A DNA stretch of 64,000 bases from Fibrobacteria bacterium (GTDB lineage Bacteria; Fibrobacterota; Fibrobacteria; UBA11236), in the NCBI GenBank assembly GCA_043745805.1, contig JAYTSD010000001.1, forward strand, positions 67,680 through 131,679. The letters are read 5' to 3'. The notes beneath the pieces were generated by a model. That model had not been told where the DNA came from. It ran no database searches and saw only the letters and a list, made by a program, of their open reading frames with translations. Each line of letters opens with the position of its first letter. Position 1 is the first letter of the stretch. The position numbers and the translations under genes are program-made. This document shows positions 3,575 through 38,228 of this stretch, in pieces.

Positions 3575-3681
3575 TAGGACGAAAAATAAGGTAATTTTTA
3601 ACATGCGTTCAAAAATAACAAAAAACAGCGCGTAACATATTCTCAGGAAATACGACTTAGCTGGGGTAGAACTGGAGCCGG

Positions 3682-4461
3682 TTGCCAATGACAAAGTCGA
3701 TAAAACTTATACTTCCATTCATCGCTCTTTTATTCGCAATGCCTCGGTCTTTACTCGCTATTGAAACTTCAATACTTAATTCAAAAATGGAAAGTGGTTT
3801 TGCGATAGTGGAGCTTTTTACCTCCGAAGGTTGTTCGAGTTGTCCACCTGCCGACCGTTTACTTTCCGATTTAGCCGAAGAGGCCTCGCGCAAAGGCAAA
3901 CCTATTTATGCCTTATCCTTTCATGTGGATTATTGGAATTATTTGGGCTGGAAAGATCCCTTCGGCCGCAAAGAATTTTCTCTAAGACAAGAAAAATATG
4001 CCCAAGCAATGGCAGGCCGCATTTATACTCCCCAAATGATTATTAATGGGAAAGAAGAATTTACGGGTTCTGATGCCGATAAAGCTAATAGCATCATTGC
4101 CTCCCAGTTAGCGCAGAAAAACCCAGTAGCTATTAATTTAGAAGTTCAACTTGCGCAGGGAAAACATAGCGTAACCATAAAGTATCGTATCGCAGGTAAT
4201 ACTTCTGGGATTTTGATCAATTTGGCATTGGTTGAAAAGGGCTTAAGCATCTCGGTAAAAAATGGAGAAAATGGAGGGCGTATTTTACATCATGATAATG
4301 TTGTCCGCTCCTTTAAAACCTTTAAACTGGAAGCGGCAACCGGACAAGCTGAACTCGAAATTCCAGAGGGTGTAAAATTGGAAAACGCTTCATTAATCGT
4401 ATATACACAAGAAACGCAATCATTGTCTGTGGTGGCCGCTACACGTATCGGTTTACATTGA
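3682..4461 (+). CDS. DUF1223 family thioredoxin-like secreted protein
   Basis: 259 aa with a signal peptide and a CSSCPPAD CxxC motif after a beta-strand (ELFTSEGCSSCPPADRLL), plus the HVDYWNYLGWKDPF segment typical of DUF1223. Confidence 0.6.
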   Translation: MPMTKSIKLILPFIALLFAMPRSLLAIETSILNSKMESGFAIVELFTSEGCSSCPPADRLLSDLAEEASRKGKPIYALSFHVDYWNYLGWKDPFGRKEFSLRQEKYAQAMAGRIYTPQMIINGKEEFTGSDADKANSIIASQLAQKNPVAINLEVQLAQGKHSVTIKYRIAGNTSGILINLALVEKGLSISVKNGENGGRILHHDNVVRSFKTFKLEAATGQAELEIPEGVKLENASLIVYTQETQSLSVVAATRIGLH

Positions 4462-4634
4462 ATTAACCATAGTTTTCGCGGTTTATTATTTACCCAACAA
4501 CTTCTCCCAAACGCTGATTTTTTTTCGCTAGCCATTAATCGAGAGGTTACCAGTTATTACCTTTTTAGGGATAATTAGTTGTCCAGCTAATTAGGTAAAC
4601 TGAAAACATCAATCAAAGAAATAAGAGGCTTCGC

Positions 4635-5456
4635 ATGAAAAAACTTCTCGCCTTCTTAATAGTAACTTACGCTATTCCGGTACTTGCAGTGCATTCTTAT
4701 TTCACTTTCAAGGGCGTGATTGGGATCGTTACGGGTAATGACAGTGCTTCCTATGTTTATGCCCAGAATATTCATGTTAACGATTCGGTTACCTATATTA
4801 TGGCCATTGATACGACTTTGGCACCGGCTATTGATAGAAAAGGATTCGCGAGAATTACTTCTACTAAAACACCTGTACCTGGAGTCGCTGCTTTTTTTGA
4901 CTCTTTAGCTTCAATTCCTAAATTTGTTAAAGGCAAAGGGGATTCCTCTATCTTGTACGATTGTATTCGCGCCTCGGCGCCACCTACTGGCTTTGCATTC
5001 ACCTTACAAACTATATATACCGGCATTGATACCAACATCAACGTACAACTTTCATTTCCTGGATCTTCATGGTTACCTTCCTTAGGCGCCCAGGGAACGG
5101 GAGCAGAAATTATGGCTACCAAAGTAAATGGGGTGAATCATACGGCGACTATTTACAGTCAAATGAAATTAGTTGCGATTAGCAATACACCGCCCACTGC
5201 AGGGATTCAAAACCAAACTGTAAATAAATTGTCCCCCGCTTGGGCCGATGCACAGTTGGTCGGAAATACTTTGAATATAAAGAATTATTCTCAAAGTTCA
5301 GCCGAAATACGTATCCTGAATGTTACGGGTAAAACTTTGCGCTTGCAAAAAATAAAAGCTTTGGAAGCATTAGTTTTGTCCGAGTTACCCAAAGGGGTAT
5401 TTTATTTGCGCCTTTCCGGTGAAGGCTCAATTTTGCAACAATCCTTTAGGCATTGA
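4635..5456 (+). CDS. secreted protein with probable T9SS C-terminal sorting domain
   Basis: 273 aa with a signal peptide. The C-terminal ~70 aa (LNIKNYSQSSAEIRILNVTGKTL...LPKGVFYLRL) resemble a Por/T9SS CTD. Confidence 0.5.
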   Translation: MKKLLAFLIVTYAIPVLAVHSYFTFKGVIGIVTGNDSASYVYAQNIHVNDSVTYIMAIDTTLAPAIDRKGFARITSTKTPVPGVAAFFDSLASIPKFVKGKGDSSILYDCIRASAPPTGFAFTLQTIYTGIDTNINVQLSFPGSSWLPSLGAQGTGAEIMATKVNGVNHTATIYSQMKLVAISNTPPTAGIQNQTVNKLSPAWADAQLVGNTLNIKNYSQSSAEIRILNVTGKTLRLQKIKALEALVLSELPKGVFYLRLSGEGSILQQSFRH

Positions 5457-5613
5457 TCTGTAATCGCAAGTGTCTTGTCTTGGCAGCTCTTGTCAAGGGA
5501 GAGCATGAGTTTGTAATAACCTTCGACGCAGATTTAGAAAATTTATTTTTACATACCCCAGATTTACATAGAAGTAATTAGCTTTTTCTCACGTTCAAAT
5601 TAAAGGGAAATTC

Positions 5614-6288
5614 ATGAAAAACCAAAATATTGTTTTAATTAGTGTCATCAGCTTGAGCTTAGGTTTAAGTTTTGCGGAAAGCAAATATGGCGCGAGCCTT
5701 AAGTCGGCAGCTACTTCCGCAGGCGCTTCTGTTGAAGCAACCAAGAAAAAGGCAGAAGATTCTGCAAAAATGGTGGCGGAGTCAGCTGCCAAAAAAACTT
5801 CAGATTCTTTGAAGACCGTTGCGGCAACTGCTGAAATGAATGCCAAAAGAATCGCAGACTCTTTAAAAGCAATAGTTTTAAAAACCCATAAAGATTCAAC
5901 CAAAAAAGTTACTCCGGCCCCAACATCTGCGCCTGTTGAAAATACCAAGGTGGAAACCACCGCTCCAGCCCCTGTCGCCAAAGCTAGCGCTTCTGCAAAA
6001 ATTGCTTTTGGAACCTCGGTGGAAGATAAAGAAATCCAAGGGGAAGCTACTGAATTTGCAGCGGGCACCGTAAGTACTTGGAGCCGTTTAGCTTTAGGCG
6101 CTGGTGCGGTTAAAGTGAAGCATGTTTGGTATAAAGAAGGTAAAATGGTTAAAGAAATTGCCATGACTAGTAAATCCGGTACGGGTCGGGTTTGGAGTAA
6201 CGCTACGGTTACTGCTGGTAAATGGAAAGTGGAAGTCGTTTCTGAAGCAGGTGACATTGTTGCTTCTGGCGAATTTACTGTAAAGTAA
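5614..6288 (+). CDS. secreted Ala/Lys-rich protein with C-terminal beta domain, unknown function
   Basis: 224 aa with a signal peptide, a low-complexity A/K/S-rich middle and a conserved-looking C-terminal ~90 aa (WYKEGKMVKEIAMTSKSGTGRVWSNATVTAGKWKVEVVSEAGDIVASGEFTV). Confidence 0.45.
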   Translation: MKNQNIVLISVISLSLGLSFAESKYGASLKSAATSAGASVEATKKKAEDSAKMVAESAAKKTSDSLKTVAATAEMNAKRIADSLKAIVLKTHKDSTKKVTPAPTSAPVENTKVETTAPAPVAKASASAKIAFGTSVEDKEIQGEATEFAAGTVSTWSRLALGAGAVKVKHVWYKEGKMVKEIAMTSKSGTGRVWSNATVTAGKWKVEVVSEAGDIVASGEFTVK

Positions 6289-6336
6289 TCGAAATATTCT
6301 TCAATATTAAATTGAGGGAGATTTTATGTATTAAAA

Positions 6337-6370
6337 ATCCGAAGTGAACAAAAACAGCTTCGGATTTTTT
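6337..6370. terminator. rho-independent terminator (bidirectional)
   Basis: Hairpin atccgaag...cttcggat followed by a T-run. It sits between the convergent 5614..6288 gene and cheB. Confidence 0.6.
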
Positions 6371-7526
6371 ATGCATGTTTTAAAGCTGGGCTTTTATTTT
6401 TTTCTTTTCTTGATGCGGCCAGCTGTAAAATTTTCCTGGAAATTTGTTGAAGCGGTAATATATGATTTGCGGCTCCAAGAACAATTGCTTCTTTAGGCAT
6501 TCCAAAAACTATCGAAGACGCTTCATCTTGTGCAATTGTAGCTGCTCCGGTACGCTGCATTTGCAATAACCCTTGTGCACCATCTTTACCCATTCCTGTA
6601 AGTAAAACTCCAATTGCGGTGTGAGCTGCATACTTTGCAACGGATTGAAATAATTCATCGACGGAAGGCCTATGTCCATTTACTAAAGGACCAGATCCAA
6701 TATGAACACGATAATTAGGACCCGAACGATAAACTTTCATATGATAACTTCCGGGGGCTATTAAGGCGCGACCAGGGACTACAAAGTCTCCATCGGCAGC
6801 TTCCTTGACTTCAATATTGCACAAATTATTTAGGCGTTCCGCAAAGGATCGAGTAAAATGTTGCGGCATATGTTGCACAACTAATAGTCCTGGAGTATTG
6901 GTAGGTAAGGTGGTTAATAAACTTTCAATCGCCTGAGTTCCTCCTGTGGAAGCTCCAATGGCAATCATGGAAGCAGAGTTTGCGGAAGAGGAAAAATTAT
7001 GATTCTCAGAACAGGGAGTTTGGGCGTTTTTTTCTTTAATAAAAAACTTAACCTGCGCAGCTGATTTTATTTTTTCCCGCAATTCAAAAATCATTTCCTG
7101 TTTTGAATAGGATAAATGGGGTTTGCATAATACTTCTACGGCCCCTATATCCATTGCTTTTAAGGCAGTTTCACCACCAAGCCGACTTAGAGAAGAAACA
7201 ATAATAACTGGAAGAGGGTAATGTTGCATTAGGCATTGTAAAAAATTTAAGCCATTCATACGCGGCATTTCTATATCTAAAGTAAGAACATCGGGTTTGA
7301 GCTTTAAAATCAATTCCCTAGCAATAAAGGGATTCGACGCTACACCAACTACTTCAATATCTGGATCAAGGGCTAATTGTGAAGAGAATACTTCCTGAAT
7401 AATTGGAGAATCGTCGATGATTAAAACTCGAATAAGTTTGTGATTAGTGGGATTCGATTTTAAAAAAGTCTTTTGCACAGAGCTATACAAGGCAAATGCC
7501 ATGCCATGATTTAAAAAAAAGCACAA
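6369..7526 (-). CDS. cheB: chemotaxis response regulator protein-glutamate methylesterase CheB (orphan copy)
   Basis: An N-terminal REC domain (LIRVLIIDDSPIIQEV...DIEMPRMNGL) followed by a CheB methylesterase domain (GASTGGTQAIE...GMGKDGAQGL...VFGMPKEAI). The true start is probably an internal Met (MAFALYS...). Confidence 0.8.
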   Translation of the reverse strand: MCFFLNHGMAFALYSSVQKTFLKSNPTNHKLIRVLIIDDSPIIQEVFSSQLALDPDIEVVGVASNPFIARELILKLKPDVLTLDIEMPRMNGLNFLQCLMQHYPLPVIIVSSLSRLGGETALKAMDIGAVEVLCKPHLSYSKQEMIFELREKIKSAAQVKFFIKEKNAQTPCSENHNFSSSANSASMIAIGASTGGTQAIESLLTTLPTNTPGLLVVQHMPQHFTRSFAERLNNLCNIEVKEAADGDFVVPGRALIAPGSYHMKVYRSGPNYRVHIGSGPLVNGHRPSVDELFQSVAKYAAHTAIGVLLTGMGKDGAQGLLQMQRTGAATIAQDEASSIVFGMPKEAIVLGAANHILPLQQISRKILQLAASRKEKNKSPALKHA

Positions 7527-7674: not shown

Positions 7675-8469
7675 TTAGGCAGCCTTTTGATCTGAAACCG
7701 AATCTGCTTTTTCTCTCTTGGAAGTTATTGTATTTAGATTTTTGAGATAATCTTCTATTTGCCGTGGAGATGGGGTTACGTCTACTTTGTTGATTTCGCG
7801 AGAAGAAAATATGACAAGTAAAAAGAAAAGAAAAAGTCCAATTACAATTTGCCCTGTAGTGCGACTTTCTACAGCTACACTTGCGCTCGCTTCATCTTGT
7901 TTATTTCTTTTCATAGCAAGGTTTACTGCAACATCAATTTTATTGCGATGTAACTTGTAAAGGGGCTCTATTTTGTTGTTTAAAATTTGTTCCGCAAGAA
8001 GTTTGTTTCCAGCTTCGATGGCAGGTAAAAATTCTTTTTCCATAATTTCCACTAATTGAAATCCAGGAATATAGGAATCGTTTGTTAGCGAGGTTTTGAG
8101 TTCATCATCGGGTAAAATTTTAACCCAAGTATTATGATTGAGCACGTAATCTACTTTCAATTTTTTCGCTTTGTTGAGTAATGTTTCCGTCTCTTGTATG
8201 TTACTGCTATGCAACAATTCAAAAAGGGTGAGGTAGGTTTCAACAAGGTATTCTGGCGGCGGCAGTATGTCCGCGATAACATCTTTGCCTTGCACAATCC
8301 GTTTATAATGCGGTCCATTCACTCGAACTTCCTGAACGGTGTTGAGGCAATAGAGCCCATAAAGCAAAAAACAAAACAGGTAAATAATGGCCATCAGGGC
8401 TATCTTTGTTGTTGAATGGGATTGGCGTGTGAAAAGTGCCATGCTTACCTCAATGTATGATAGGTTCAA
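7675..8469 (-). CDS. membrane protein with MCP-like periplasmic helical sensor domain but no HAMP/signalling domain
   Basis: 264 aa. One N-terminal TM helix, a ~170-aa helical periplasmic region (ILPPPEYLVETYLTLFELLH...) of the kind found at MCP/HK N-termini, a second TM helix, then only ~45 aa of cytoplasmic tail. Same strand as, and immediately upstream of, the orphan cheB. Confidence 0.45.
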   Translation of the reverse strand: MNLSYIEVSMALFTRQSHSTTKIALMAIIYLFCFLLYGLYCLNTVQEVRVNGPHYKRIVQGKDVIADILPPPEYLVETYLTLFELLHSSNIQETETLLNKAKKLKVDYVLNHNTWVKILPDDELKTSLTNDSYIPGFQLVEIMEKEFLPAIEAGNKLLAEQILNNKIEPLYKLHRNKIDVAVNLAMKRNKQDEASASVAVESRTTGQIVIGLFLFFLLVIFSSREINKVDVTPSPRQIEDYLKNLNTITSKREKADSVSDQKAA

Positions 8470-8554: not shown

Positions 8555-11470
8555 ATGTCTGCAAAAGATAAAGATTTAAAAAATAAACCCAGTTTACCTT
8601 GGTGGACATGGGTATTGCCTTTACTTATCTTCCATTTTGGTACGGGCCTATCTCTTAATTTTCAGATTTCTCAACGCATGTCGCTGTGGTATTTACCTGT
8701 CCCTTTGGGATTATTTCTCATTCATTGGTGGGGACCACGCGTTCTTTTAGGATTGTATTTAAATGCCTTACTTTGTGCGGGCTACTGGGGTTTTAATCAT
8801 TGGTGGTTTTGGCCACTTTATGCTTTACCCGAAACCCTGAAAGTCGGACTTTCTTGGTTGCTATTTACCAGAATTTTGAAAGGAAAAGTTTGGCTTCCTG
8901 ATTTATCTAACATGTGGCGTTTCCTACTCTTTGGCATGATTACTCCATGTTTTCTCGGCAGTGTTTTCGGAGAAGCATTATTTATAGTCTTGGGTGATTT
9001 TCATCCCGAACACTGGTGGCATGAGGCCTATGTGCAATTTGTGCTCGATATACTTTGCCCATTTGCTATCACTGTGCCGGCGCTCCTATTTGCCACCGCT
9101 TACATTGAAAAATTCAAGTTGTCTATGACACAAGGCGCGTATCCTTGCTCGGCGTTAGTATTATCAGGACGTATTACGCGGTTGATGATGTATGAAGTCA
9201 TAGCTTTATTTTCAGGATTACTAATTTTGAGTCTATGCGTTTCATTAGAAACGTATTGGTTCGTCTACGGTGTATTTTTGATTTGGGGGGCTTTACGTTT
9301 TGGTATTGGCGTGGCATCCATTGGAACGATATGGACTATTTGTTTGGCAATATTGTTTCCCGCTTTATTATCTAATCATTTTGCATCCTTATGGTTGACT
9401 CGATCGGATTTGCTTAAAGTCAATTTGAATTTGGCAACGCTTTGTTTTGCAGCCTTAGTCGTTGGTCGTGCCTTAAGTGATGTCTTTCAAGAAATCGAAA
9501 CGCGTAAACAGGCTGAATCCAGTTTAAAAATTAGCGAAAATAAATATCGACTATTATTTGAATCCGCTTCCGATGCCATTATTTTGGGAGATAAGGGAAT
9601 AATATTCGATTGTAATAAACGCGCCTTGGAAATGCTTGGGGCCAAACTTGAAGACATTATTGGTTCACATTCTTCTCGTTTTTTTCAATCACAATTGCCC
9701 GATGGTAGCGATGCTGTAACTGTCATGTCCAAGTTACGGTCGGAAGCCTTGGATGGCCACCCTCAATTTTTCGAATGGAAAGTAAAACGCCTTGATGGCA
9801 GCTTGATCAATACGGAAATAACCTTTAGAGGCGTGGATTTAGATGGGAAACGTATCATTATGGCCGTAATACACGATATTACGCAAAGAAAAAAGATGGA
9901 GCGGGCGGTTTTTGAAAGTGAATATCGACATCGTACTTTGTTTGAATCTGCAAATGATGCCATTGTAGTTTCGGAAAATGGTTTGATATTGGATTGTAAT
10001 CATCGCACCACCGAGCTATTTGGATTTACCCGTGAGCAAATGATAGGTTTTCCAGCCACTATGGGTTTTCCCGATTTCCAACCTAATGGAGTTCGGACTG
10101 CTGACTTAGTTCTCAGCCATCGTCTTGCGGCATTGGAAGGAACTCCGCAAAGCTATGAACTGTTACAAAAAAAAGCCGACGGTAGCACCTTTGAAACGGA
10201 AACTACTTTAGCCCCAGTAATTTTAGAAGGGCGGCGTATTATCCAAGTGGTGATTCGCGATATTTCGCAGCGCAAAAAAATAGAAAGGGCTTTGGTGGAA
10301 AGCGAAGAGCGCTTTAGGCAAATGGCCGAAAATATACAGGAGATTTTTTTCTTATTGGATAAAGCCACTCAAACCATGCTTTATGTCAGTCCGATTGCGG
10401 AATCTTTATTAGGTGTCCCTTTAGAAAATGTGATTAATCGACCTTTGGCAATTGACGAACGCATGCATCCGGAAGATAGGGAACGGGTAGGATTTTTTAA
10501 AGATGGGGCTTGGTATAAGCGTACATTCAATGAAGATTTTCGTTTTATTCGTCCCGACGGAGTAACTCGATGGTTACGGATGCGGACATTCTTGATTCCT
10601 GATAATGAAGGCCGTATTTACCGTGTAGCAGGTGTGGCAACGGATATAACCGAATATAAAACCGCACAGGAAGAGACGCGCAATCATCAACAAAAGTTAG
10701 TGCAGGCCGATAAAATGAACTCCTTGGGACAAATGGTTTCTGGAGTGGCTCATGAAATCAATAATCCGAATAATTTGATAATGTTGAATGCGGATGTAAT
10801 GGATACTTTTTGGAAACATTTACGCCCTGCGCTTAGAGATTATTTTGCTCGCTATCCCGATTGGAAACTTGCGAATATTCCTTATGACAAAGCGGAAGGT
10901 AAATATGAAACTCTCTTGCAGGGGATTACGGGTGGTGCAAAGCGTATTAAAAATATAGTTGATAATTTAAAAGATTTTGCACGAGTGAATCATGGGGATC
11001 TTTCTGAATCAATCGTCATAGAAAAAGTTATCGCTGCTTCTATAGGGATTGTGGATCATTTAATTAGAAAATCTACGAATCATTTCCAGGTATTGAACGG
11101 TGAAAATATTCCTCCGATTTTAGGTAACTTTCAAAAACTGGAGCAAGTAATTATTAATTTAATTACTAATGCTTGCCAAGCCTTGGCATCGAGTTCCCAT
11201 GCGATTCGTATTGAGACTTGGTTTGATAAAGAAAATGAAAGAGTAGGTATTCGCGTGGAAGATGAAGGAATAGGTATACCCGAGAATTTTTTGCGAATGG
11301 TTACCGATCCATTCTTTACCACGAAACGAGATAGTGGAGGAACGGGTTTAGGGCTATCCGTTTCCTATGGAATTATTCGTGAACATAAAGGTACTTTGGA
11401 AATTCAATCCCAAGAAAATCATGGAACCAAAGTGGAAATAATGTTACCTGCTAGGAATCCTAAGCTATGA
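8555..11470 (+). CDS. multi-PAS sensor histidine kinase with polytopic N-terminal membrane domain
   Basis: 971 aa. About 8 predicted TM helices (residues 1-300) and at least three PAS-like blocks. H-box SGVAHEINNPNN; N, G1 and G2 boxes (INLITNACQA, EDEGIGIP, GGTGLGLS). Confidence 0.8.
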   Translation: MSAKDKDLKNKPSLPWWTWVLPLLIFHFGTGLSLNFQISQRMSLWYLPVPLGLFLIHWWGPRVLLGLYLNALLCAGYWGFNHWWFWPLYALPETLKVGLSWLLFTRILKGKVWLPDLSNMWRFLLFGMITPCFLGSVFGEALFIVLGDFHPEHWWHEAYVQFVLDILCPFAITVPALLFATAYIEKFKLSMTQGAYPCSALVLSGRITRLMMYEVIALFSGLLILSLCVSLETYWFVYGVFLIWGALRFGIGVASIGTIWTICLAILFPALLSNHFASLWLTRSDLLKVNLNLATLCFAALVVGRALSDVFQEIETRKQAESSLKISENKYRLLFESASDAIILGDKGIIFDCNKRALEMLGAKLEDIIGSHSSRFFQSQLPDGSDAVTVMSKLRSEALDGHPQFFEWKVKRLDGSLINTEITFRGVDLDGKRIIMAVIHDITQRKKMERAVFESEYRHRTLFESANDAIVVSENGLILDCNHRTTELFGFTREQMIGFPATMGFPDFQPNGVRTADLVLSHRLAALEGTPQSYELLQKKADGSTFETETTLAPVILEGRRIIQVVIRDISQRKKIERALVESEERFRQMAENIQEIFFLLDKATQTMLYVSPIAESLLGVPLENVINRPLAIDERMHPEDRERVGFFKDGAWYKRTFNEDFRFIRPDGVTRWLRMRTFLIPDNEGRIYRVAGVATDITEYKTAQEETRNHQQKLVQADKMNSLGQMVSGVAHEINNPNNLIMLNADVMDTFWKHLRPALRDYFARYPDWKLANIPYDKAEGKYETLLQGITGGAKRIKNIVDNLKDFARVNHGDLSESIVIEKVIAASIGIVDHLIRKSTNHFQVLNGENIPPILGNFQKLEQVIINLITNACQALASSSHAIRIETWFDKENERVGIRVEDEGIGIPENFLRMVTDPFFTTKRDSGGTGLGLSVSYGIIREHKGTLEIQSQENHGTKVEIMLPARNPKL

Positions 11471-11510
11471 ATTTTTTCTATCCTTTGCATAAGGGGATAA
11501 GGTAACTCCT

Positions 11511-13148
11511 ATGTTTCGCCCAAGTTCTTCTATCGCTTTAATGGTTATTGTAACAATTGTAACAGTTATTACCTTAATATTAAGCTTATTTGGGTTTTCT
11601 AATTATAGAGTAAATCAGGAAAGAGAATGGAAACAGCTTAATCAAGATCTTGCTGCCGAATCAGAACAGGCAGCGGTTTCACTGGCCTTACCCATTTGGA
11701 ATATAGATAGACCACAAATCGAAAAAATCTTAGAAAGTGTCATGCTTAATCGTATGGTTTACGGATTGATTTTGGAGCTTGAAGACGAACACCACACGAC
11801 AATTCTTAGAGATAGGGATGAGAAATGGAGGGTTCGTATACCAGGACATTCGATTGAACAGGCTGGTTTATTGACGAATTCGAATGCTATTGCGACTGGA
11901 TCACAACTGCTAGGTCATGTTACCGTTTATGGATCGGCAAAGTTTATTGAAACAAATTTGCGAGCCTTTTTGTATTGGACTATTGCCAGTATTTTGTTGT
12001 TGGACATAATTCTTTCTTTAGGATTGTATTTCTTACTTTGGTACTGGGTTTTTCAGCCTTTGAAGAAAATTGAAAGTTACGCTGTAGCCCTTAATCACTC
12101 TGGCTCTGCGACGATTGGGATTTCGGGAGGTCGATTTTATGGTGAATTAGAAAGTCTGCGATCCCATTTGGAGCAAATGGTGGTTCAATTGAACATGCGT
12201 TATCTAGAATTACAGAAAGAAACCAAACAGCGAAAATTGACAGAAACGGCCTTGCGGGAAAGCGATAATCGATTTCGGCAAATGGCCGAAAATATTGAGG
12301 AAATTTTCTTTTTAATCGATCAACCCACCGAAGCCTTACTTTATTTAAGTCCTATTTCAATTTCAATTTTAGGTTATTCTCCTGATGAAATTATTCCGCA
12401 ATGGCAAGATTTTAAAAAATTCTGGAATACAGAGGATATGCAAAGAATTGGTTTTTATGATCATGGAGCTTGGTATAAAAAAGCCTTCAACGAGGAATTC
12501 CGTTGGAATCGTCCCGATTGGAAACCGGCAAATATTCCTTATGATAAGGCGGAAGAAAAATATGAAACTCTTTTGCAGGGGATTTCGGGCGGGGCCAAAC
12601 GTATTCAAAATATCGTAGGTAGTTTGAAAGATTTTGCACGCCTTGACGCAGGTGAAATTTCCGAGCCTATTCTGATAGAAAAGGTTATTGAAGCGGCCAT
12701 TGGAATAGTCGATCATTTGATCAAAAAATCAACTCATCATTTTAAGGTTGAAATTGGCAATAATATTCCTAGAATAAAAGGACGTTTTCAAAAACTAGAA
12801 CAAGTTATTATTAATCTTATTACTAACGCCTGCCAGTCATTGGAATCCCGCGAGAAGTCCATTTCCATTCACGTTTGCTATTCAGAAGATATCAAGAGGG
12901 TATGTCTTCGCGTAGAAGATCAAGGTTGTGGTATTACTGCAAATCTACTCAATAAAGTTACCGATCCTTTTTTTACCACTAAGCGAGATATGGGTGGAAC
13001 CGGCCTCGGTCTTTCGGTAACCTATGGAATTATTAAGGAACATCAAGGAGCCATAGAAATTCAATCCATTGAGCATTTGGGAACAAAGGTGGAAATTTTG
13101 CTTCCCATTTACCCAGAAAAAAATAAGGGGAATAATTATGCACCATGA
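11511..13148 (+). CDS. histidine-kinase paralog lacking the phospho-acceptor (H-box) helix
   Basis: 545 aa: TM, ~130-aa extracytoplasmic domain, TM, HAMP-like coiled coil, partial PAS, then directly the CA (HATPase) domain. Colinear with the upstream kinase except for a ~103-aa in-frame gap that removes the H-box. Confidence 0.7.
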   Translation: MFRPSSSIALMVIVTIVTVITLILSLFGFSNYRVNQEREWKQLNQDLAAESEQAAVSLALPIWNIDRPQIEKILESVMLNRMVYGLILELEDEHHTTILRDRDEKWRVRIPGHSIEQAGLLTNSNAIATGSQLLGHVTVYGSAKFIETNLRAFLYWTIASILLLDIILSLGLYFLLWYWVFQPLKKIESYAVALNHSGSATIGISGGRFYGELESLRSHLEQMVVQLNMRYLELQKETKQRKLTETALRESDNRFRQMAENIEEIFFLIDQPTEALLYLSPISISILGYSPDEIIPQWQDFKKFWNTEDMQRIGFYDHGAWYKKAFNEEFRWNRPDWKPANIPYDKAEEKYETLLQGISGGAKRIQNIVGSLKDFARLDAGEISEPILIEKVIEAAIGIVDHLIKKSTHHFKVEIGNNIPRIKGRFQKLEQVIINLITNACQSLESREKSISIHVCYSEDIKRVCLRVEDQGCGITANLLNKVTDPFFTTKRDMGGTGLGLSVTYGIIKEHQGAIEIQSIEHLGTKVEILLPIYPEKNKGNNYAP

Positions 13149-14583
13149 AATTTCAATACTTATTGTAGACGATGAAGAGGATATTCTTACTTCTGAAGAA
13201 TTGGTATTACAGATGAATGGCTATACTAATATTACTACTTGTTCGGATTCGCGAAAAGTGGAAAGTATTCTGAATAAGAATCCGAATAGCCTCGCCATTT
13301 TGGATATTACTATGCCGCAAATAGACGGTATAGAACTTCTTTCTCGGATTAAACACAATCATCCGCAAGTAACGGTGGTAATGATGACCGGATTAAATGA
13401 TGTGGAAACAGCGGTTCGCTGTTTAAAGAATGGGGCTCTTGATTATATCCTTAAACCCTTCGATCAAAATCGGTTTTTGACTTGTGTAAAAAAAGCGTTA
13501 GAGCATCATATTGTTTGTGATGAATCTATTCGTTTAGCACGCGGTGTACTCGAAGAGAATGTTATAAATCCCAAAAGTTTTTCTGCAATTGTTACTCAGG
13601 AAAGACGATTGGTTAATATTTTTAAATATATCGAAGCCGTAGCGCCAACGGGTTTATCAGTTCTGTTAACAGGGGAAACCGGTGTAGGTAAAGAATTATT
13701 TGCTAACGCGGTGCACTTGGCAAGTGGTCGAACTGGTGAGTTTGTTTGTGTGAATAGTGCTGGGATTGACGACGCCATGTTTAGCGATTCACTTTTTGGC
13801 CATGTTTCTGGCGCTTATACAGGTGCGCAAAAGGGTCGCAAAGGTCTTATTGATCGCGCTAAAAATGGAACCTTATTTCTTGATGAAATAGGAGACATGA
13901 AACCGGAAACTCAAGTTAAACTATTACGTTTATTACAAGAAGGAACCTTCTACCGCTTAGGTCAAGAGACTGAAGAAAGAACCAATGCTAGGATTGTGGC
14001 GGCCACTAATCGTTCCTTAGAGGAATTACAGAATGATCCCCGTTTCCGAAAAGATTTATTTTATCGCTTAAAAGCGCATCATGTATATATCCCTCCCCTG
14101 CGGGAAAGAATGAATGATGTGCCTTTACTTACCAATAGGTTTTTAGCCCAATGCGCCCAAGAACAAAACAAAGCGAAACCCACTCCCCCTCCAGAACTAG
14201 ATATTTTACTTTCCAATTATCATTTTCCGGGAAATGTACGCGAGTTACGTGGTTTGGTTTACGATGCGGTCAGTAGGCATCAGGGTGGAGTTTTATCCTG
14301 TAGCTCTTTTAAAGATGCAATCGGAACGAAACATTTAAGTAACGGTAACGTGAATAAAATGATTCCATTTAGTAAAGAAATACTTTTTCCATCCCCACTT
14401 CCTTCGGTTCGAGAAATAGAAAATGCACTTATTCGCGAAGCATTAAAACGAACCGGTGGTAATAAATCCTTAGCTTCGGAAATGATTGGAATGGCCCGCC
14501 AAACCTTTAGAACTAGAGTTAAGGAATTGCAGCCTCCTTGGGAAAATGCTGATAACATGGTAGAAGTAGAGGGAATAGACTAA
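13138..14583 (+). CDS. sigma-54-dependent two-component response regulator (NtrC family)
   Basis: REC domain (ILIVDDEEDIL...DITMPQIDG) plus a sigma-54 activator AAA+ domain: Walker A GETGVGKE, the GAFTGA-like motif GAYTGA, and ESELFGH-like SLFGH. C-terminal Fis-type HTH. The ATG at 13138 overlaps the preceding kinase by 11 bp. Confidence 0.85.
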   Translation: MHHEISILIVDDEEDILTSEELVLQMNGYTNITTCSDSRKVESILNKNPNSLAILDITMPQIDGIELLSRIKHNHPQVTVVMMTGLNDVETAVRCLKNGALDYILKPFDQNRFLTCVKKALEHHIVCDESIRLARGVLEENVINPKSFSAIVTQERRLVNIFKYIEAVAPTGLSVLLTGETGVGKELFANAVHLASGRTGEFVCVNSAGIDDAMFSDSLFGHVSGAYTGAQKGRKGLIDRAKNGTLFLDEIGDMKPETQVKLLRLLQEGTFYRLGQETEERTNARIVAATNRSLEELQNDPRFRKDLFYRLKAHHVYIPPLRERMNDVPLLTNRFLAQCAQEQNKAKPTPPPELDILLSNYHFPGNVRELRGLVYDAVSRHQGGVLSCSSFKDAIGTKHLSNGNVNKMIPFSKEILFPSPLPSVREIENALIREALKRTGGNKSLASEMIGMARQTFRTRVKELQPPWENADNMVEVEGID

Positions 14584-14632
14584 GTCTCCACACATTTTGA
14601 GTTTAAAATAGGGAATAAAGTCGTGGCTAAAT

Positions 14633-14647
14633 TTGGTCAATGACCAA
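14633..14647. promoter_or_regulatory. perfect 15-bp palindrome TTGGTCAATGACCAA (candidate enhancer/UAS)
   Basis: Read directly from the sequence. It lies ~185 bp upstream of the -24/-12 element, a typical distance for bacterial enhancer-binding-protein sites. Confidence 0.3.
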
Positions 14648-14817
14648 TTTTTATAAGCTCATAAATTCAATGGAGGCCCGTCTTATCTAGGGTTTGCTCA
14701 TTTTACAATAAAAATTAGCCACCCTTTTTTACCACACAATTGGAAATATGTTTTTTTGGGAGGCCTTAAAACGAGCTTAAAGGCGATTTTATTCAAATTA
14801 ATTGCAATAAAGAAAAA

Positions 14818-14833
14818 TGGCACAGGGCTTGCA
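14818..14833 (+). promoter_or_regulatory. sigma-54 (-24/-12) promoter TGGCACagggcTTGCA
   Basis: Exact match to TGGCAC-N5-TTGCA. It is ~55 bp upstream of the 14887 ORF and directly downstream of the NtrC-type activator gene. Confidence 0.6.
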
Positions 14834-14886
14834 TTGTAATCTCCTTGTAAAAGTGTTTCACGACGAATTGTTACTAAGAGGTTATC

Positions 14887-15216
14887 ATGGTAGGTTTGGA
14901 ATTGACAAGAGAATGTCAGACGGAATTTGAAGATGCCATTTTACAAATGGCACAAGAACTTATTCCTATTGCCCAATTAGTTTCTGATTTTCCTGAATGG
15001 AGTAAAGCTTTAGCGAAGGGATTTTTTGACCTCTCCATTTTATCCCAAAAGGGTGGAGAAAAGAAGATTTATTTTTCTGCAAGAGCATTTTCTCAAATAT
15101 TAAATCAATTACAAAAATCTCCGGAAGAAGATATTCCCTTTATCCTAAGTAAAGGAATTGAATTTTTGAATTCCATAATTATTGAAAATAAAATAAACTC
15201 CATGAGGAGTTTATAA
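14887..15216 (+). CDS. hypothetical small protein (first gene of sigma-54-driven operon)
   Basis: 109-aa ORF with no recognisable motif. Tightly followed by cheW. Confidence 0.4.
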   Translation: MVGLELTRECQTEFEDAILQMAQELIPIAQLVSDFPEWSKALAKGFFDLSILSQKGGEKKIYFSARAFSQILNQLQKSPEEDIPFILSKGIEFLNSIIIENKINSMRSL

Positions 15217-15758
15217 TGGTTGATTTATTTGGAGAAGAATATTCACCTTCTAGAGGTGCAAAAATGGTAGATGGTAGATATTTCACTTTTCGTTTAGGGG
15301 AAGAGATATTTGGAATAAGCATACTTAAAGTACAAGAAACCTTAAGTGTTAATACCTTAAAGCAAGTTGCAAATTTACCTAAATATTTTAGTGGCATAAC
15401 TACTTTAAGAGGACAACCTATTCCCGTAATAGATTTACGTTTGAAATTCGGATTGGAAAGTCGCACGGCCAATAACTCTCCCTTTTCCCTAATTGTCGTG
15501 CAGCTTTCTACACCCATTATATTCGGTAAAAAATCAGAAAGTGCTTTAGCGCTTGCAATTGATGAAGAAACCGACATGGTTAATATATTGAATGGACAAA
15601 TCGAATTAAAATCCATTCGTGGTCAAAATCGGAATGGAACTTTACTATTCGGTATTGCGCGTATCCAACAAAAAGTTATTCGCTTATTGAATATTGATCA
15701 AATAATAAGCTTAGAAGATTGGGCAATACTTTTGAATTTGGAAATGGTTACGGAATAA
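15216..15758 (+). CDS. cheW: chemotaxis coupling protein CheW (second copy)
   Basis: CheW-like domain (RYFTFRLGEEIFGISILKVQE...LRGQPIPVIDLRLKFG). Confidence 0.8.
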   Translation: MVDLFGEEYSPSRGAKMVDGRYFTFRLGEEIFGISILKVQETLSVNTLKQVANLPKYFSGITTLRGQPIPVIDLRLKFGLESRTANNSPFSLIVVQLSTPIIFGKKSESALALAIDEETDMVNILNGQIELKSIRGQNRNGTLLFGIARIQQKVIRLLNIDQIISLEDWAILLNLEMVTE

Positions 15759-15759
15759 T

Positions 15760-16869
15760 ATGAATAATATGCACGCATTAATTGTTGACGATGACAAACA
15801 AGCATTAGATACCATGGGAATGATTTTAGAGATGGATGATTTTTTTGTCTCCAAAACCGAAAATGGTCAACAAGCTTTGGATTGTTTAACGGGATATGAA
15901 AATACGGAAAATACTGTTGATTTTTTGGTATTAGACTTAGAGATGGATACGCTTTCGGGAATCGAGTTACTCACAGAATTACGTAAACGTGGTAATATGA
16001 TTCCGGTTATGGTGGTTACGGGTTTTGCGTCTAGAAAAAATGTTATCAATTTACTTAGGCAAGGCGTTTTCGATTTTTTGGACAAGCCCATACGGATGGA
16101 AGAGTTTCGTTCGCATGTTCATCGACTGGCTAATGAAGTGCTAAATCGCCGCAAGGAGATTGCTGTTTTACCTGTCGTCACTCAACACCGTGCAGTTTCC
16201 GTTTTTGATTTAGGGAATTTAGGTTTCCCTTATACATTGCGTCGTCGCATTGATGTAACGTCTGGGAATCACCTGATTTTAGCAAATCGCAAGCGCTCAG
16301 GTTATGATATTCTTCTTGTAGAGGCTTTTGGGGCTGATTCAGAATGTTTTTATATGACCATGCTAATTAAAAACTATTTCGATAAAAATCGAACTTTAGA
16401 TACAGCGCCACAAAATTTTTTACAAGGTTTGAACCAGGTTATATTGGATGGATCCTTGAAATGTCGAGAAGTTAGGGCATTATTAATCCATCTTGGTAAC
16501 GCCGGCATACTAGAAGTCCTTCCTGCAGGTTACCCCACACGGATGTTTTTTGGACTTGGAAAAGATCAGCCCAGATTTTTGACTTTTTCTGGATTACCAT
16601 TGGGCGGACAAGCAACGGTTGGACAAATAAAATTTGAAATTCCTTATAAGCCAAACGATAAACTATTTGTCTTTGCAGAAAATAAAATCGCTTCGAATGG
16701 CGAAAAAAGCCTAGACGATACCGAAGAATTTTTGATGGCAGAAAGCGTACTAGGCCAAGGTCATGACTCTTTAGATGAAATGACGGATTCGATGTGGCAA
16801 AGAATACATAAAGAAATTAAAAATGCAAAAGTCAGTGATGGCTTTCTACTAGGTTTAACATTGCCATAA
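15760..16869 (+). CDS. response regulator with C-terminal PP2C/SpoIIE-like (possibly degenerate) domain
   Basis: REC domain (ALIVDDDKQALD...DLEMDTLSGIELL...VVTGF...K). The C-terminal ~230 aa have weak PP2C-like spacing (SGYDILLVEAFGADSE...), and the usual DVSGHG metal-binding motif is not conserved. Confidence 0.5.
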   Translation: MNNMHALIVDDDKQALDTMGMILEMDDFFVSKTENGQQALDCLTGYENTENTVDFLVLDLEMDTLSGIELLTELRKRGNMIPVMVVTGFASRKNVINLLRQGVFDFLDKPIRMEEFRSHVHRLANEVLNRRKEIAVLPVVTQHRAVSVFDLGNLGFPYTLRRRIDVTSGNHLILANRKRSGYDILLVEAFGADSECFYMTMLIKNYFDKNRTLDTAPQNFLQGLNQVILDGSLKCREVRALLIHLGNAGILEVLPAGYPTRMFFGLGKDQPRFLTFSGLPLGGQATVGQIKFEIPYKPNDKLFVFAENKIASNGEKSLDDTEEFLMAESVLGQGHDSLDEMTDSMWQRIHKEIKNAKVSDGFLLGLTLP

Positions 16870-35348: not shown

Positions 35349-38015
35349 TTAATTTTGCATAGTTAAATGGGTTTCATTGGCAACCGGAAGCCAGTCTTGA
35401 TTTGTTACCTGTTTTGAGGGCTTACCCTTTTCCGCCAACATACTTTTAAGTAAACCATCGACATCTAGAATTATTCCCACACAACCATCCGAAAGAATAG
35501 TGCCGCCTGTTAATCCGGGAATATTTTTAAAAGTTTCCCCTAAACTTTTAATCACTGTTTGTTGTTGCCCCATTAATTCATCAACAATAAAGCCCGTTTG
35601 TTGATGATTGGATTCAACAATTACAGCTAATTTTAGCCGTACATCATTGGATTTAATTGGTATTTGGAAAAAATCTTGCAAAGAAAAAAGTGGAATTAAG
35701 CTTCCATTTAAAGAAAGCATTTCTCCTTTTTCCACACAAGTTGTAATATCCTTAGGATTGATGGCCACAATACGCACTACCGAAAGGGTAGGGAAAATAT
35801 AACGCTCTCTTCCAACACGAACGACCATGCCATCGATAATGGCAAGCGTGAGCGGCAACCAAATACTAAAAGTGGTACCGACATTTTTTTCAGAATGAAT
35901 TTCAATACGGCCACGTAATAATTCAATATTACGTTTTACTACATCCATGCCAACACCGCGACCGGATACTTCAGTAATTTCGCTGGCGGTAGAAAATCCC
36001 GCTTCAAAAATAAAACCCCAAATATCTTTGTCAGTTAAATTACTTTCATCTTTCACCAAGCCTCTTTCTTTAGCCTTGGCAAGAATGGAATCGCGATTTA
36101 AACCTCGACCATCATCTTTGATTTCCAAACAAACATTGCCCCCTTTTTGAAATGCGCTTAGTTTGACTTGGGCAATAGGGGGCTTCCTATATCGTACTCG
36201 ATCTTCTGGATTTGTTTCAATTCCATGATCAACGGAATTACGTAACATATGAACTAATGGATCCCCAATTCTGTCTACAACAGTTTTATCGAGTTCAATT
36301 TCTTCACCAAAGCAAACAAACTCCACATTTTTTCCACTTTTTTTTCCAAGATCTCGAACCAGACGAGACATTTTTTGAAACAATGGTCTTACAGGAACCA
36401 TGCGTAAGGACGTTCCCATATTTTGCAGTTCACGTGTAATTTTGTCTAATTGCATTAATTGTTGCAGTAACTTAGGAGACACCTTTCTTTTTAATTCTGG
36501 AGACTGTACAATCATGGTTTCCACAATAACCAATTCCCCAATATTGTCTAAAAGGCGATCTAAGCGATCAGCCTCTACTTTAACTGTCTCTTTGATAGTT
36601 AGGGCCGAGTTTTCTTTATCTGCTTGCTTTTGCTCCCTTAATGCATGCGTTACAGTTTGTGCATCGACACTACCATGTTGCACCAAAATTTGCCCAAGGG
36701 GCACATGTCTTTGTGATTCATTTTGTAAAGCAATAGCTTGAACAATAATTTCTTTTTCCACGGCACCCGATTTTATTAAAATATCACCCAATTTACTTCC
36801 GGGAATTACGGTGGTTTTTTCTTTTGATGATTTCGTGATAGCTTCGCCCGCATTCGCTTGACGAATCTTTTTTAATAGCAAACTTATTACTGCATCTTGA
36901 GGTCTATCACCGTGGCCTTCTTTTACATGACCCACAAGCGTTTTCATCATCCCCACTGATTCAAAGACACAATCCAACAATTCGCCTTGAAGAACAATGA
37001 GCGCTTCACGAGCCTTGTCTAAAAGACTTTCCGTTTCATGAGCCAACGTTTTGATGGTGCTTAATTCTAAAAATCCTGCCAATCCTTTTATACTATGAAA
37101 GGCACGAAATACGGCGTCTAAAGACTCTTTTCGATGAGGATCCACTTCTAAATCCATAAGATGTACATCGGAGACATCTAAATGCTCTAGAGCTTCCACA
37201 ATAAAATCCGCAAGTATGCTCGGATCCATTTCCAAAGCCGAGCTTGTAGGCCCTTCAATTATTTCATGGCCAGAAAGGTAATTTTGGTCCTCAAACCTTT
37301 TTAAAAATGAATTAATTGCCTCGGGTTGTATTGTCTTGGAAGTGTAACTTTTGAAAGTGCTACCCAACCAATCTAAAACTTTTAATAAAACATCTGTATT
37401 ATTAGGTTTGGCCTTTTCAATAAAACCTTCGGTAGCATGACAAATTTTTTCAACATCATCTAAACCCAAAATAGCGGATTCACCTTTTAGGTTATGGAGA
37501 ATTCCCTGTAGTTGTCGGAGCGTCGATGGGTCCGCAGATTTTTCTAAAGCTAAAACACAACTTTCCATTTCTTCTAAGCGACTATCTTGACGTGATAAAA
37601 AATCAGAAAATATTTTTTCATCTACATTGGCCGGTAATCCTCGAACGACTTCAATTTCATCCGGTAAGTTTTTTCTTGACGAAGGTTCGGCCTCTTCTGG
37701 AAACAAATCTTGCAGGGCTTCTAAATTCTTTGTGACATTGTTTAAGGTATTTTCTTTTTCTATACCCACCGCCATATTAAGGTTTTCCAGAAGATTTTGC
37801 GTAAACTTACAGAGTTCAGTAGCTTGTGAGTTACCTTCTTTTAAAGCCCAATCATAAACTTCTTTTAAGCGAAGATGAATTTGAGCCTGGGCAGCAAAAT
37901 CATCATGAGCAATTAAAACAAAATCTTCAATTAGGGCGCGAATTTTTTGTAAGCCGATTTTTTCATTCATTTGGACGCTTTTCGTTTCAGGCAAAATAAG
38001 TTTACAGAGTATCAT
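35349..38015 (-). CDS. cheA: chemotaxis histidine kinase CheA (two Hpt domains)
   Basis: 888 aa. Two Hpt-like segments (HNLKGESAILG ; FHSIKGLAGFL), a dimerisation domain, HATPase (DHGIE...GRGVGMDVV) and a C-terminal CheW-like P5 domain. Confidence 0.9.
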   Translation of the reverse strand: MILCKLILPETKSVQMNEKIGLQKIRALIEDFVLIAHDDFAAQAQIHLRLKEVYDWALKEGNSQATELCKFTQNLLENLNMAVGIEKENTLNNVTKNLEALQDLFPEEAEPSSRKNLPDEIEVVRGLPANVDEKIFSDFLSRQDSRLEEMESCVLALEKSADPSTLRQLQGILHNLKGESAILGLDDVEKICHATEGFIEKAKPNNTDVLLKVLDWLGSTFKSYTSKTIQPEAINSFLKRFEDQNYLSGHEIIEGPTSSALEMDPSILADFIVEALEHLDVSDVHLMDLEVDPHRKESLDAVFRAFHSIKGLAGFLELSTIKTLAHETESLLDKAREALIVLQGELLDCVFESVGMMKTLVGHVKEGHGDRPQDAVISLLLKKIRQANAGEAITKSSKEKTTVIPGSKLGDILIKSGAVEKEIIVQAIALQNESQRHVPLGQILVQHGSVDAQTVTHALREQKQADKENSALTIKETVKVEADRLDRLLDNIGELVIVETMIVQSPELKRKVSPKLLQQLMQLDKITRELQNMGTSLRMVPVRPLFQKMSRLVRDLGKKSGKNVEFVCFGEEIELDKTVVDRIGDPLVHMLRNSVDHGIETNPEDRVRYRKPPIAQVKLSAFQKGGNVCLEIKDDGRGLNRDSILAKAKERGLVKDESNLTDKDIWGFIFEAGFSTASEITEVSGRGVGMDVVKRNIELLRGRIEIHSEKNVGTTFSIWLPLTLAIIDGMVVRVGRERYIFPTLSVVRIVAINPKDITTCVEKGEMLSLNGSLIPLFSLQDFFQIPIKSNDVRLKLAVIVESNHQQTGFIVDELMGQQQTVIKSLGETFKNIPGLTGGTILSDGCVGIILDVDGLLKSMLAEKGKPSKQVTNQDWLPVANETHLTMQN

Positions 38016-38212
38016 ATCAAAATGTCAAGTATTGGTGGAAAAAAAATAAATTTTTTTTTAGCAAAACGACTTTGATAATATTAATGAAATTATTCAAATG
38101 CATTTTAATGTTCGTGTTAAATATTGTTATAATTATCACAATAATTATCAAAAAAATAGCATCAAATATAGAGTGATTTAAAAATGATTACGCGACTACT
38201 AAATAAAAGTCT

Positions 38213-38228
38213 GCAAAGATTATGCCAT
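38213..38228 (-). promoter_or_regulatory. sigma-54-type -24/-12 element TGGCATaatctTTGCA (read on minus strand)
   Basis: The plus strand reads tgcaaagattatgcca, whose reverse complement is TGGCAT-N5-TTGCA. It is ~200 bp upstream of cheA and oriented toward the che operon. Confidence 0.5.

Follow-up and report, generated by a model that had tools for sequence, protein, structure and literature searches.

The stretch of DNA analysed here, hereafter the window, comprises 64,000 nucleotides of a Fibrobacteria bacterium (contig JAYTSD010000001.1, positions 67,680 to 131,679) and carries two neighbouring histidine kinase genes followed by the gene for an NtrC/AtoC-type sigma-54 activator (the regulator). 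Gene 1 (8555-11470; positions are those of the window, and features lie on the + strand unless marked otherwise) encodes an intact 971-aa sensor histidine kinase in which the list of open reading frames (ORFs) and Pfam place a MASE1 domain, three PAS domains, a HisKA domain with its H-box and a HATPase_c domain. Gene 2 (11511-13148) is an intact ORF for a 545-aa chimeric kinase paralog that has no H-box. We consider it probable, though far from certain, that gene 2 is a lineage-specific, chimeric extra kinase, disabled by a microhomology-mediated deletion that stayed in frame.

An earlier note on this DNA had described the C-terminal parts of the two kinases as colinear except for an in-frame gap of about 103 residues in gene 2, and had proposed pairwise alignment as a check. 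BLASTP and blastn confirm the gap, and the colinear parts resolve into two ungapped BLASTP blocks: aa 568-668 of gene 1 against aa 236-336 of gene 2 (51/101 identical, 50%, E 5e-29), and aa 768-965 against aa 335-532 (139/198 identical, 70%, E 1e-88). Since the Pro-Asp pair at aa 335-336 of gene 2 is common to both blocks, the loss amounts on balance to 101 codons (303 bp); the gap is therefore real and in frame, with a length of 101 residues. In the BLASTP and MAFFT alignments, the segment of gene 1 without a counterpart in gene 2 lies at 10559-10861 (equivalently 10553-10855). Its left end lies just past PAS strand G (…FRFIRPD) and its right end in the loop that joins the DHp helices (…FARYPD), and in it are PAS strands H and I, the linker helix and DHp helix 1. 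This last helix includes the H-box SGVAHEINNPNN (10739-10774) with the phospho-acceptor His733 (codon CAT, 10751-10753), and the box is conserved in every aligned member of the family.

The profile matches agree with the alignments. Pfam finds MASE1, three PAS domains including a full PAS_3, a full HisKA and HATPase_c in gene 1. In gene 2, HisKA is matched only at profile positions 32-66, which correspond to helix 2 (18.3 bits, with a cut-off of 26.9), and PAS_3 only at positions 2-62 of 89. The proposed loss of the phospho-acceptor helix is upheld, the H-box falling inside the 101-codon gap and HisKA being partial. What follows the N-terminal module of gene 2 is a PAS remnant of the gene 1 PAS3 type without its last two beta-strands (12258-12518, aa 250-336; Pfam PAS_3 and a neighbor-joining tree), the DHp loop with a helix 2 remnant (12519-12665, aa 337-385; Pfam HisKA 32-66), and a CA domain (12678-13109; Pfam, motif coordinates and AlphaFold2). 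The CA domain is intact, as had been claimed: HATPase_c is complete (E 1.6e-21), and the N, G1, F and G2 boxes are present as NLITNACQ, DQGCGI, FFTTKR and GGTGLGLS at aa 435, 470, 487 and 495. Of the parts that make up a functional HisKA kinase, gene 2 has the CA domain and lacks both the H-box and the two-helix DHp hairpin.

Could another histidine of gene 2 take the place of the lost one? H219, the only cytoplasmic helical His upstream of the gap, was considered and ruled out: it lies in the HAMP-like linker and is mostly Ser or Cys in homologues. The earlier statement that gene 2 holds no His-bearing DHp helix elsewhere stands with it. The deletion is not a clean domain excision, for it cuts through two folding units and leaves a PAS domain without its last two strands next to half a helical hairpin. 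In an AlphaFold2 model based on a 25-sequence alignment, the CA residues 390-533 are confident (predicted local distance difference test score, pLDDT, mostly >90), as is the N-terminal sensor with its two transmembrane segments, while pLDDT is 46-67 across residues 320-385, which hold the junction and helix 2; such a model cannot judge the stability of the protein.

At the DNA level, the junction falls on the hexanucleotide TCCCGA. Its left copy in gene 1 (10552-10557) covers the codons Pro667-Asp668 at the end of PAS strand G, its right copy (10855-10860) covers Pro768-Asp769 in the loop between the DHp helices, and gene 2 has a single copy at the deletion point (12512-12517). The flanks read ATTCG-TCCCGA-CGGAG (left) and CGCTA-TCCCGA-TTGGA (right) in gene 1, and AATCG-TCCCGA-TTGGA in gene 2. 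A short direct repeat had already been proposed at ~10548 and ~10858, close to these positions. With gene 1 serving merely as a proxy for the ancestor of gene 2, microhomology of at least 6 nt accompanies 0.27% of random 303-bp deletions and 0.23% of deletions of 30-600 bp placed in gene 1. The proxy is reasonable because Pro-Asp is family-conserved at both sites, and since microhomology of this length is so rare under the null model, a deletion between short direct repeats is well supported.

One estimate had to be lowered. The two genes had been put at ~80% DNA identity, and the codon-aligned values are 64% for the PAS part and 70% for helix 2 plus CA, with blastn high-scoring segment pairs at 69-76%. 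Identity reaches 82-87% only within ~100 nt to the right of the junction, and the longest identical run between the paralogs is 19 nt. The signal for a recent gene-conversion tract at the junction falls short of significance, synonymous codon identity being 68% in the 36 codons to its right versus 50% elsewhere (p = 0.10).

The description of the two genes as tandem paralogs holds in part: they are adjacent and paralogous from about aa 236 of gene 2 onward, but gene 2 begins with a module unrelated to gene 1. This module (11511-12230) consists of a first transmembrane segment, a small periplasmic domain with the motif SLALPIWNIDRPQ, a second transmembrane segment and a HAMP-like linker. Judged by sequence comparison, gene 2 is a chimera that belongs to a rare sensor family up to residue ~240 and carries a gene 1-type PAS3-DHp-CA transmitter from ~236 on. 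Its first ~240 aa resemble the N-terminus of P0001, a 638-aa kinase from a metagenome-assembled genome (MAG) of Fibrobacteres in which PAS, H-box and CA are all complete (31% identity over 347 aa), and they match 32 loci in GTDB genomes of Verrucomicrobiota, Fibrobacteria, Acidobacteriota, Myxococcota and Planctomycetota at 28-44% identity. Against P0001 and L003, the N-terminal identity is 31-44%. The family has the signature SLALPIWN(I/F)DRPQ, whose residues are kept in gene 2. Its kinase outputs vary (loci L002-L033), with HisKA or HisKA_3 and with PAS or GAF. All 27 full-length members of this N-terminal sensor family have a phospho-acceptor domain, recognised by an H-box pattern in 21 and by Pfam HisKA or HisKA_3 in the other 6.

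The remainder of gene 2 points to gene 1. The PAS remnant is 50% identical to gene 1 PAS3 and 17-19% identical to the PAS of P0001 and of the kinase at locus L003, and in a neighbor-joining tree it nests within the MASE1-kinase clade. The best match of helix 2 plus CA is likewise gene 1 (70%), any other being at most 64% identical. Third-codon-position identity is 0.48-0.51 between gene 1 and gene 2, versus 0.35-0.38 for the equally AT-rich orthologue P0004, and this higher value fits an old intragenomic duplication or conversion (synonymous divergence, dS, ~1.2-1.8).

The sensor family also has a constant companion. In all 32 loci with a gene 2-type N-terminus, a partner gene lies directly upstream on the same strand and encodes a secreted protein of ~280-330 aa that is 55-75% identical across phyla. 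The partner has no significant Pfam or NCBIfam match, only a sub-threshold SBP_bac_3 hit and a weak match in the PDB to 4zv1, an amino-acid-binding protein. Examples are the partner at 2674-3663 of L003, followed by its kinase at 3641-7129, and that at 9065-9985 of L001, followed by its kinase at 10001-11917. Together, partner and kinase have the look of an uncharacterised sensor system that depends on a binding protein. Sensing by way of a separate periplasmic binding protein is known from the kinases of LuxP-LuxQ, TorT-TorS and ChvE-VirA, which the family resembles in adjoining a secreted SBP_bac_3-like protein in 32/32 loci. The differences are that its partner has no significant Pfam or NCBIfam match and that the partner of gene 2 is absent from the window: tblastn finds no homologue in the 64 kb (best E 0.14), and gene 1 sits in that position. 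Gene 2 is thus without both its usual co-sensor in cis and its phospho-acceptor. Within the same family, the kinase ORF at L031 6867-7331 (a Thermoanaerobaculia MAG) ends after 154 aa while the contig goes on; it may be another truncated member, or a frameshift.

How widespread is the arrangement? Gene 1 and the regulator have orthologues in seven loci (L044, L045, L046, L047, L048, L049 and L050), where regulator identity is 71-76% and the gene 1 counterparts (P0002, P0004, P0008 and P0010) hold the equivalent position. Their common layout consists of a minus-strand che cluster, a membrane protein of ~230 aa, the MASE1-PAS kinase, the regulator, an ORF of ~110 aa and cheA/cheW. Spacing between kinase and regulator ranges from an overlap of 4-8 nt to a gap of 25 nt, and no second kinase lies between the two in any of the seven. 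Because the MASE1 kinase directly abuts the regulator in 7/7 loci, gene 2 is a lineage-specific insertion; the short form, whose conservation in related loci the earlier note had wanted compared, is absent from all of them. In L003, from a Fibrobacteria MAG, a regulator orthologue (69% identical) is preceded by a full-length, 1162-aa kinase with a gene 2-type N-terminus, and a comparison of L003 3641-8559 places this kinase and the MASE1-PAS kinases in one transmitter subfamily (H-box HEINNP). With a MASE1 kinase in seven loci and an N-sensor kinase in L003, sensor modules appear to have been swapped on a fixed transmitter-regulator pair, and the window alone among the loci compared has both kinase types in tandem. 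The closest relatives are uncultured Fibrobacteres/Fibrobacteria MAGs only, with regulator identities of at most 76%.

Gene 1 and all its relatives share the architecture of NtrB/AtoS-type PAS kinases (HisKA, H-box HE[IV]xNP) that work with NtrC/AtoC activators. The likeness extends to the order of kinase then regulator and to the best NCBIfam matches, which are AtoS for the gene 2 CA domain and AtoC/NtrC for the regulator. Gene 2 differs in matching these kinases only from residue ~345 on (DHp helix 2 plus CA), with neither H-box nor helix 1.

The short form was sought well beyond these loci. In a MAFFT alignment of 18 homologous transmitter modules, the gap occurs in gene 2 alone. With HMMER, no alignment runs across the junction among the best 150 matches from 1.84 billion representative proteins, all of which start at query positions 320-349 or end by 339. 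As 18/18 homologues keep the segment and no match crosses the junction, gene 2 has lost the segment rather than the others having gained it. A protein word-index search with the whole of gene 2 returned long forms only, and a protein search with aa 1-240 returned 3 fragments. The GTDB genome scan gave the 32 loci, at no more than 44% identity and with no short form among them, while a scan of JGI metagenomes gave 10 loci that match only from query residue ~196 on (linker and PAS region). Nineteen BLAST high-scoring segment pairs that seemed to span the junction were rejected as short forms, for they continue into the subject's own PAS C-terminus. In the collection clustered at 90% identity, the gene 2 cluster (P0124/P0125) is represented by an unrelated 49-aa ENA peptide, a clustering artefact, which explains why the window's own gene 2 is absent among the homology matches.

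In the course of events that we favour, a once-complete gene would have lost 303 bp through slippage or microhomology-mediated deletion. Without PAS strands H and I, the linker helix and DHp helix 1, its product would no longer form a DHp dimer, and without its His it would neither autophosphorylate nor act on the regulator as a kinase or phosphatase. Signalling to the regulator would then pass through gene 1 alone, as in the relatives. Two circumstances, singly or together, might explain why the ORF is still open: a recent date of the deletion (less than ~0.03 substitutions per site), and a dependence of the overlapping regulator start on read-through translation.

The sequence of gene 2 has also changed faster than that of gene 1, by a factor of 2-4. 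Tajima relative-rate comparisons give ~5 (gene 1) versus ~19 (gene 2) for the PAS remnant (p 0.001-0.02) and ~11 versus ~23 for helix 2 plus CA (p 0.003-0.3, depending on the outgroup). Lineage-specific replacements in these two parts number 23/84 and 28/198 in gene 2, and 7/84 and 11/198 in gene 1. At clade-conserved columns, gene 2 deviates at 6/32 (PAS) and 15/108 (helix 2 plus CA), versus 0/32 and 7/108 for gene 1. Among the 83 columns of helix 2 plus CA with a residue common to at least 90% of 16 core-family sequences, gene 2 departs from the family residue at seven and gene 1 at two, and three of the seven lie in the orphaned helix 2. The asymmetry between the genes is equal in the PAS remnant and the CA domain (p 0.78) and is therefore uninformative as a clock for the deletion; for branch-specific ratios of nonsynonymous to synonymous change (dN/dS) with outgroups, dS is saturated against every orthologue. 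Of the marks of a pseudogene, gene 2 shows the loss of an essential part and the absence from related genomes, and its frame is undisrupted.

Several observations weigh against a gene that is simply decaying. Neither a stop nor a frameshift interrupts the 545 codons, and the length of the deletion is divisible by 3. Under simulated neutral substitution, an ORF of this length stays open with P 0.15 at 0.02 substitutions per site and 0.01 at 0.05, the probability falling below 0.05 beyond ~0.03; either the deletion is very recent, or the frame is still selected. The ATP-binding motifs and the sensor-domain signature are all intact, and a comparison of the paralogs gives a low dN/dS (helix 2 plus CA ~0.12-0.18, PAS remnant ~0.27, with dS near saturation at 1.2-1.8), which indicates purifying selection on gene 2 for most of its history. 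No close relative was found by which the deletion could be dated, and the deletion may also be old, with the CA domain under selection ever since. The partner gene, finally, may lie outside the 64-kb window. One candidate for what selects for the open frame is translational coupling through the 11-nt overlap with the regulator start, which would select against nonsense and frameshift mutations and leave missense changes free.

These same observations feed the reading in which gene 2 is a retained, functional, kinase-dead sensor, anchored in the membrane, whose ATP-binding CA domain tunes the pathway. We regard it as unlikely, yet substantial enough to be taken seriously. Such a protein could bind gene 1; it could bind the co-translated sigma-54 activator in the manner of NifL and NifA; or its effect could lie in the loss of a phosphatase, so that gene 1 alone sets the phosphorylation level of the regulator, as with the ChrS pseudokinase variant. 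Besides the intact ORF and catalytic motifs, the low dN/dS of the CA domain and the improbability of so long a frame staying open by chance, it can draw on the overlap of the gene 2 stop with the regulator start. In gene 2, moreover, replacements take up a larger share of the PAS remnant than of helix 2 plus CA (23/84 versus 28/198, p 0.011), as expected from an old deletion with continuing constraint on CA; however, given the equal asymmetry between the domains, the denser changes may only reflect a PAS domain that is less constrained. The deletion also cuts two folding units where known pseudo-histidine kinases keep the DHp scaffold, AlphaFold2 confidence is low at helix 2 and the junction, and the usual periplasmic partner gene is missing from the window. 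The gene itself is absent from the 7 orthologous loci, and its junction occurs in none of the best 150 matches from the 1.84 billion representatives. Of the two fates that the earlier note had put side by side, a decaying paralog and a kinase-dead regulator, the first is the likelier.

A bolder version holds that the DHp-less form is kept by selection as a new type of accessory protein, and this we find doubtful. As a split kinase, its free ATP-binding CA domain may act in trans on the DHp domain of gene 1 and so bring in a second sensory input; as an anti-activator, by analogy with NifL, its CA domain may bind the co-translated sigma-54 activator in a nucleotide-dependent way. If this were true, one microhomology deletion would have rewired a chemosensory control circuit of two kinases and one regulator. 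NifL is a non-phosphorylating relative of PAS/GHKL kinases that is encoded upstream of NifA, translationally coupled to it, and controls it by binding. Although NifL is among the NCBIfam matches of gene 1, it differs from gene 2 in having an H (DHp-like) domain and a complete PAS, NifA has a GAF domain and not a receiver, and past the common domains there is no sequence-specific similarity.

Other precedents for kinases that do not phosphorylate differ from gene 2 in what they keep. The RocA pseudokinase of group A Streptococcus binds CovS (PMC7028121), and both RocA and DivL of Caulobacter act by binding a true kinase or a regulator, with no need for autophosphorylation (PMC7028121, PMC4211667). 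In both, the DHp fold is complete and the protein is conserved across strains or species. Gene 2 is left with half a DHp, and we could find no orthologue of it, so that neither the complete kinase-like fold nor the conservation of the degenerate form across orthologues is seen in it. In Corynebacterium glutamicum, the spontaneous mutation ChrS_CA-fs inactivates one of two paralogous, cross-talking kinases, after which the paralog HrrS controls the regulator ChrA; the loss is adaptive, as was shown experimentally (PMC9491836). Gene 2 is like it in being one of two paralogous kinases made inactive. ChrS, however, lost its CA domain by a frameshift and kept a heterodimerising DHp, whereas the sequence of gene 2 shows the reverse, a CA domain without DHp helix 1.

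It is also conceivable, if improbable, that the short form was never complete, the recombination that fused a foreign sensor to a copy of the gene 1 transmitter having skipped the 303 bp as well. Junction and chimera would then be of one age. That gene 2 arose by recombination is demonstrable, no full-length version of it was found in any collection searched, and the two copies of the element ATAAGGGGA, each past a CA-coding end and before the next start, suggest a duplication that included a ribosome-binding region. Yet this course requires an extra template switch, exactly in frame and at microhomologous positions, and a junction of the age of the duplication (dS >1.2) implies the long functioning of a protein with two broken domains, of which no second example was found. 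Least credible, to the point of being very hard to sustain, is a gap that is an artefact of assembly or sequencing, or a minority allele of the sampled population. The source, a contig of 225 kb, does look metagenome-derived, and the closest relatives are all MAGs, but paralogs that are 64-70% identical with a longest common run of 19 nt are too divergent for repeat collapse, a 6-bp repeat is shorter than any assembler k-mer, and the gap is exactly in frame. The exact 545-aa protein, moreover, was recorded in two assemblies, one from NCBI and one from Logan. The deletion of the phospho-acceptor segment from a lineage-specific chimera thus remains the reading we prefer.

The regulator gene (13138-14583) encodes 481 aa with a receiver domain, according to Pfam and NCBIfam. 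Its true start is the ATG at 13138, backed by the sequence and by the 481-aa self-hit P0270, and with the gene 2 stop at 13146-13148 the two genes overlap by 11 nt. ATAAGGGGA occurs just twice across the window: at 11489-11497, 13 nt 5' of the gene 2 start (its last base is 14 nt away from the A of the ATG), and at 13123-13131, within the 3' end of gene 2 and 6 nt 5' of the regulator start (its last base is 7 nt away from the A). The copy before gene 2 may have arisen by duplication of the regulator gene's ribosome-binding region. Where gene 2 meets the regulator, the sequence aligns with the kinase/regulator junction of L046, and together with the two copies this hints that the duplicated segment took in that region. 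No terminator-like site was found between gene 1 and gene 2, and sigma-70-like promoter matches are at background (22 found versus 19.8 expected).

Upstream of gene 1 and divergent from it, a 264-aa membrane protein without a Pfam match is encoded at 7675-8469 (- strand), and its position is conserved in L046 and L048-L050. It is homologous to the sensor domain at the N-terminus of P0016 (31% over 183 aa, E 2e-31), a protein in which that domain is fused to the same PAS-kinase module as that of gene 1. Such a Rosetta-stone fusion is a hint that the membrane protein works with gene 1. Further upstream, two long ORFs overlap almost totally in antisense, one of 220 aa at 5595-6257 (- strand) and one of 224 aa at 5614-6288. 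A match of the latter to DUF2914 (E 1e-13) makes it probable that the one on the minus strand is spurious.

Chemosensory genes surround the whole locus. A perfect sigma-54 -24/-12 element, TGGCACagggcTTGCA, lies at 14818-14833, 54 nt before the ORF at 14887-15216; after this ORF come cheW (15216-15758) and a receiver protein (15760-16869). This element is likely to be the target promoter of the regulator, which probably drives a chemotaxis-like module through sigma-54-dependent expression. At 14633-14647 there is a palindrome, TTGGTCAATGACCAA, that could serve as the terminator of the regulator gene or as an enhancer site. In L044 and L048-L050, the regulator is followed by the ORF of ~110 aa, cheA and cheW; in the window, 14584-16869 holds the ORF and then cheW, with no cheA there. 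The window's cheA lies ~20 kb away on the other strand (35349-38015, - strand), and upstream of it is a copy of the sigma-54 element with one mismatch (38212-38227, - strand). The displaced cheA indicates that the locus was rearranged beyond the insertion of gene 2.

The first structural interpretation of the gap was right, and to it are now added the chimera, the absent partner gene and the lineage-specific insertion. The event is an ordinary one that leaves a degenerate kinase paralog in a single genome, and its value is that of a documented case of how two-component genes are built and lost, through sensor swap, insertion and the in-frame deletion of a phospho-acceptor. In annotation, gene 2 should not be named a functional histidine kinase. 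The pairing of a periplasmic protein with a sensor kinase in at least five phyla is a by-product of the analysis, and maybe the more useful one. For work on this organism, gene 2 is a candidate natural 'CA-only' variant, and it would be of wider interest only if the short form is expressed and modulates gene 1 or the sigma-54 activator.

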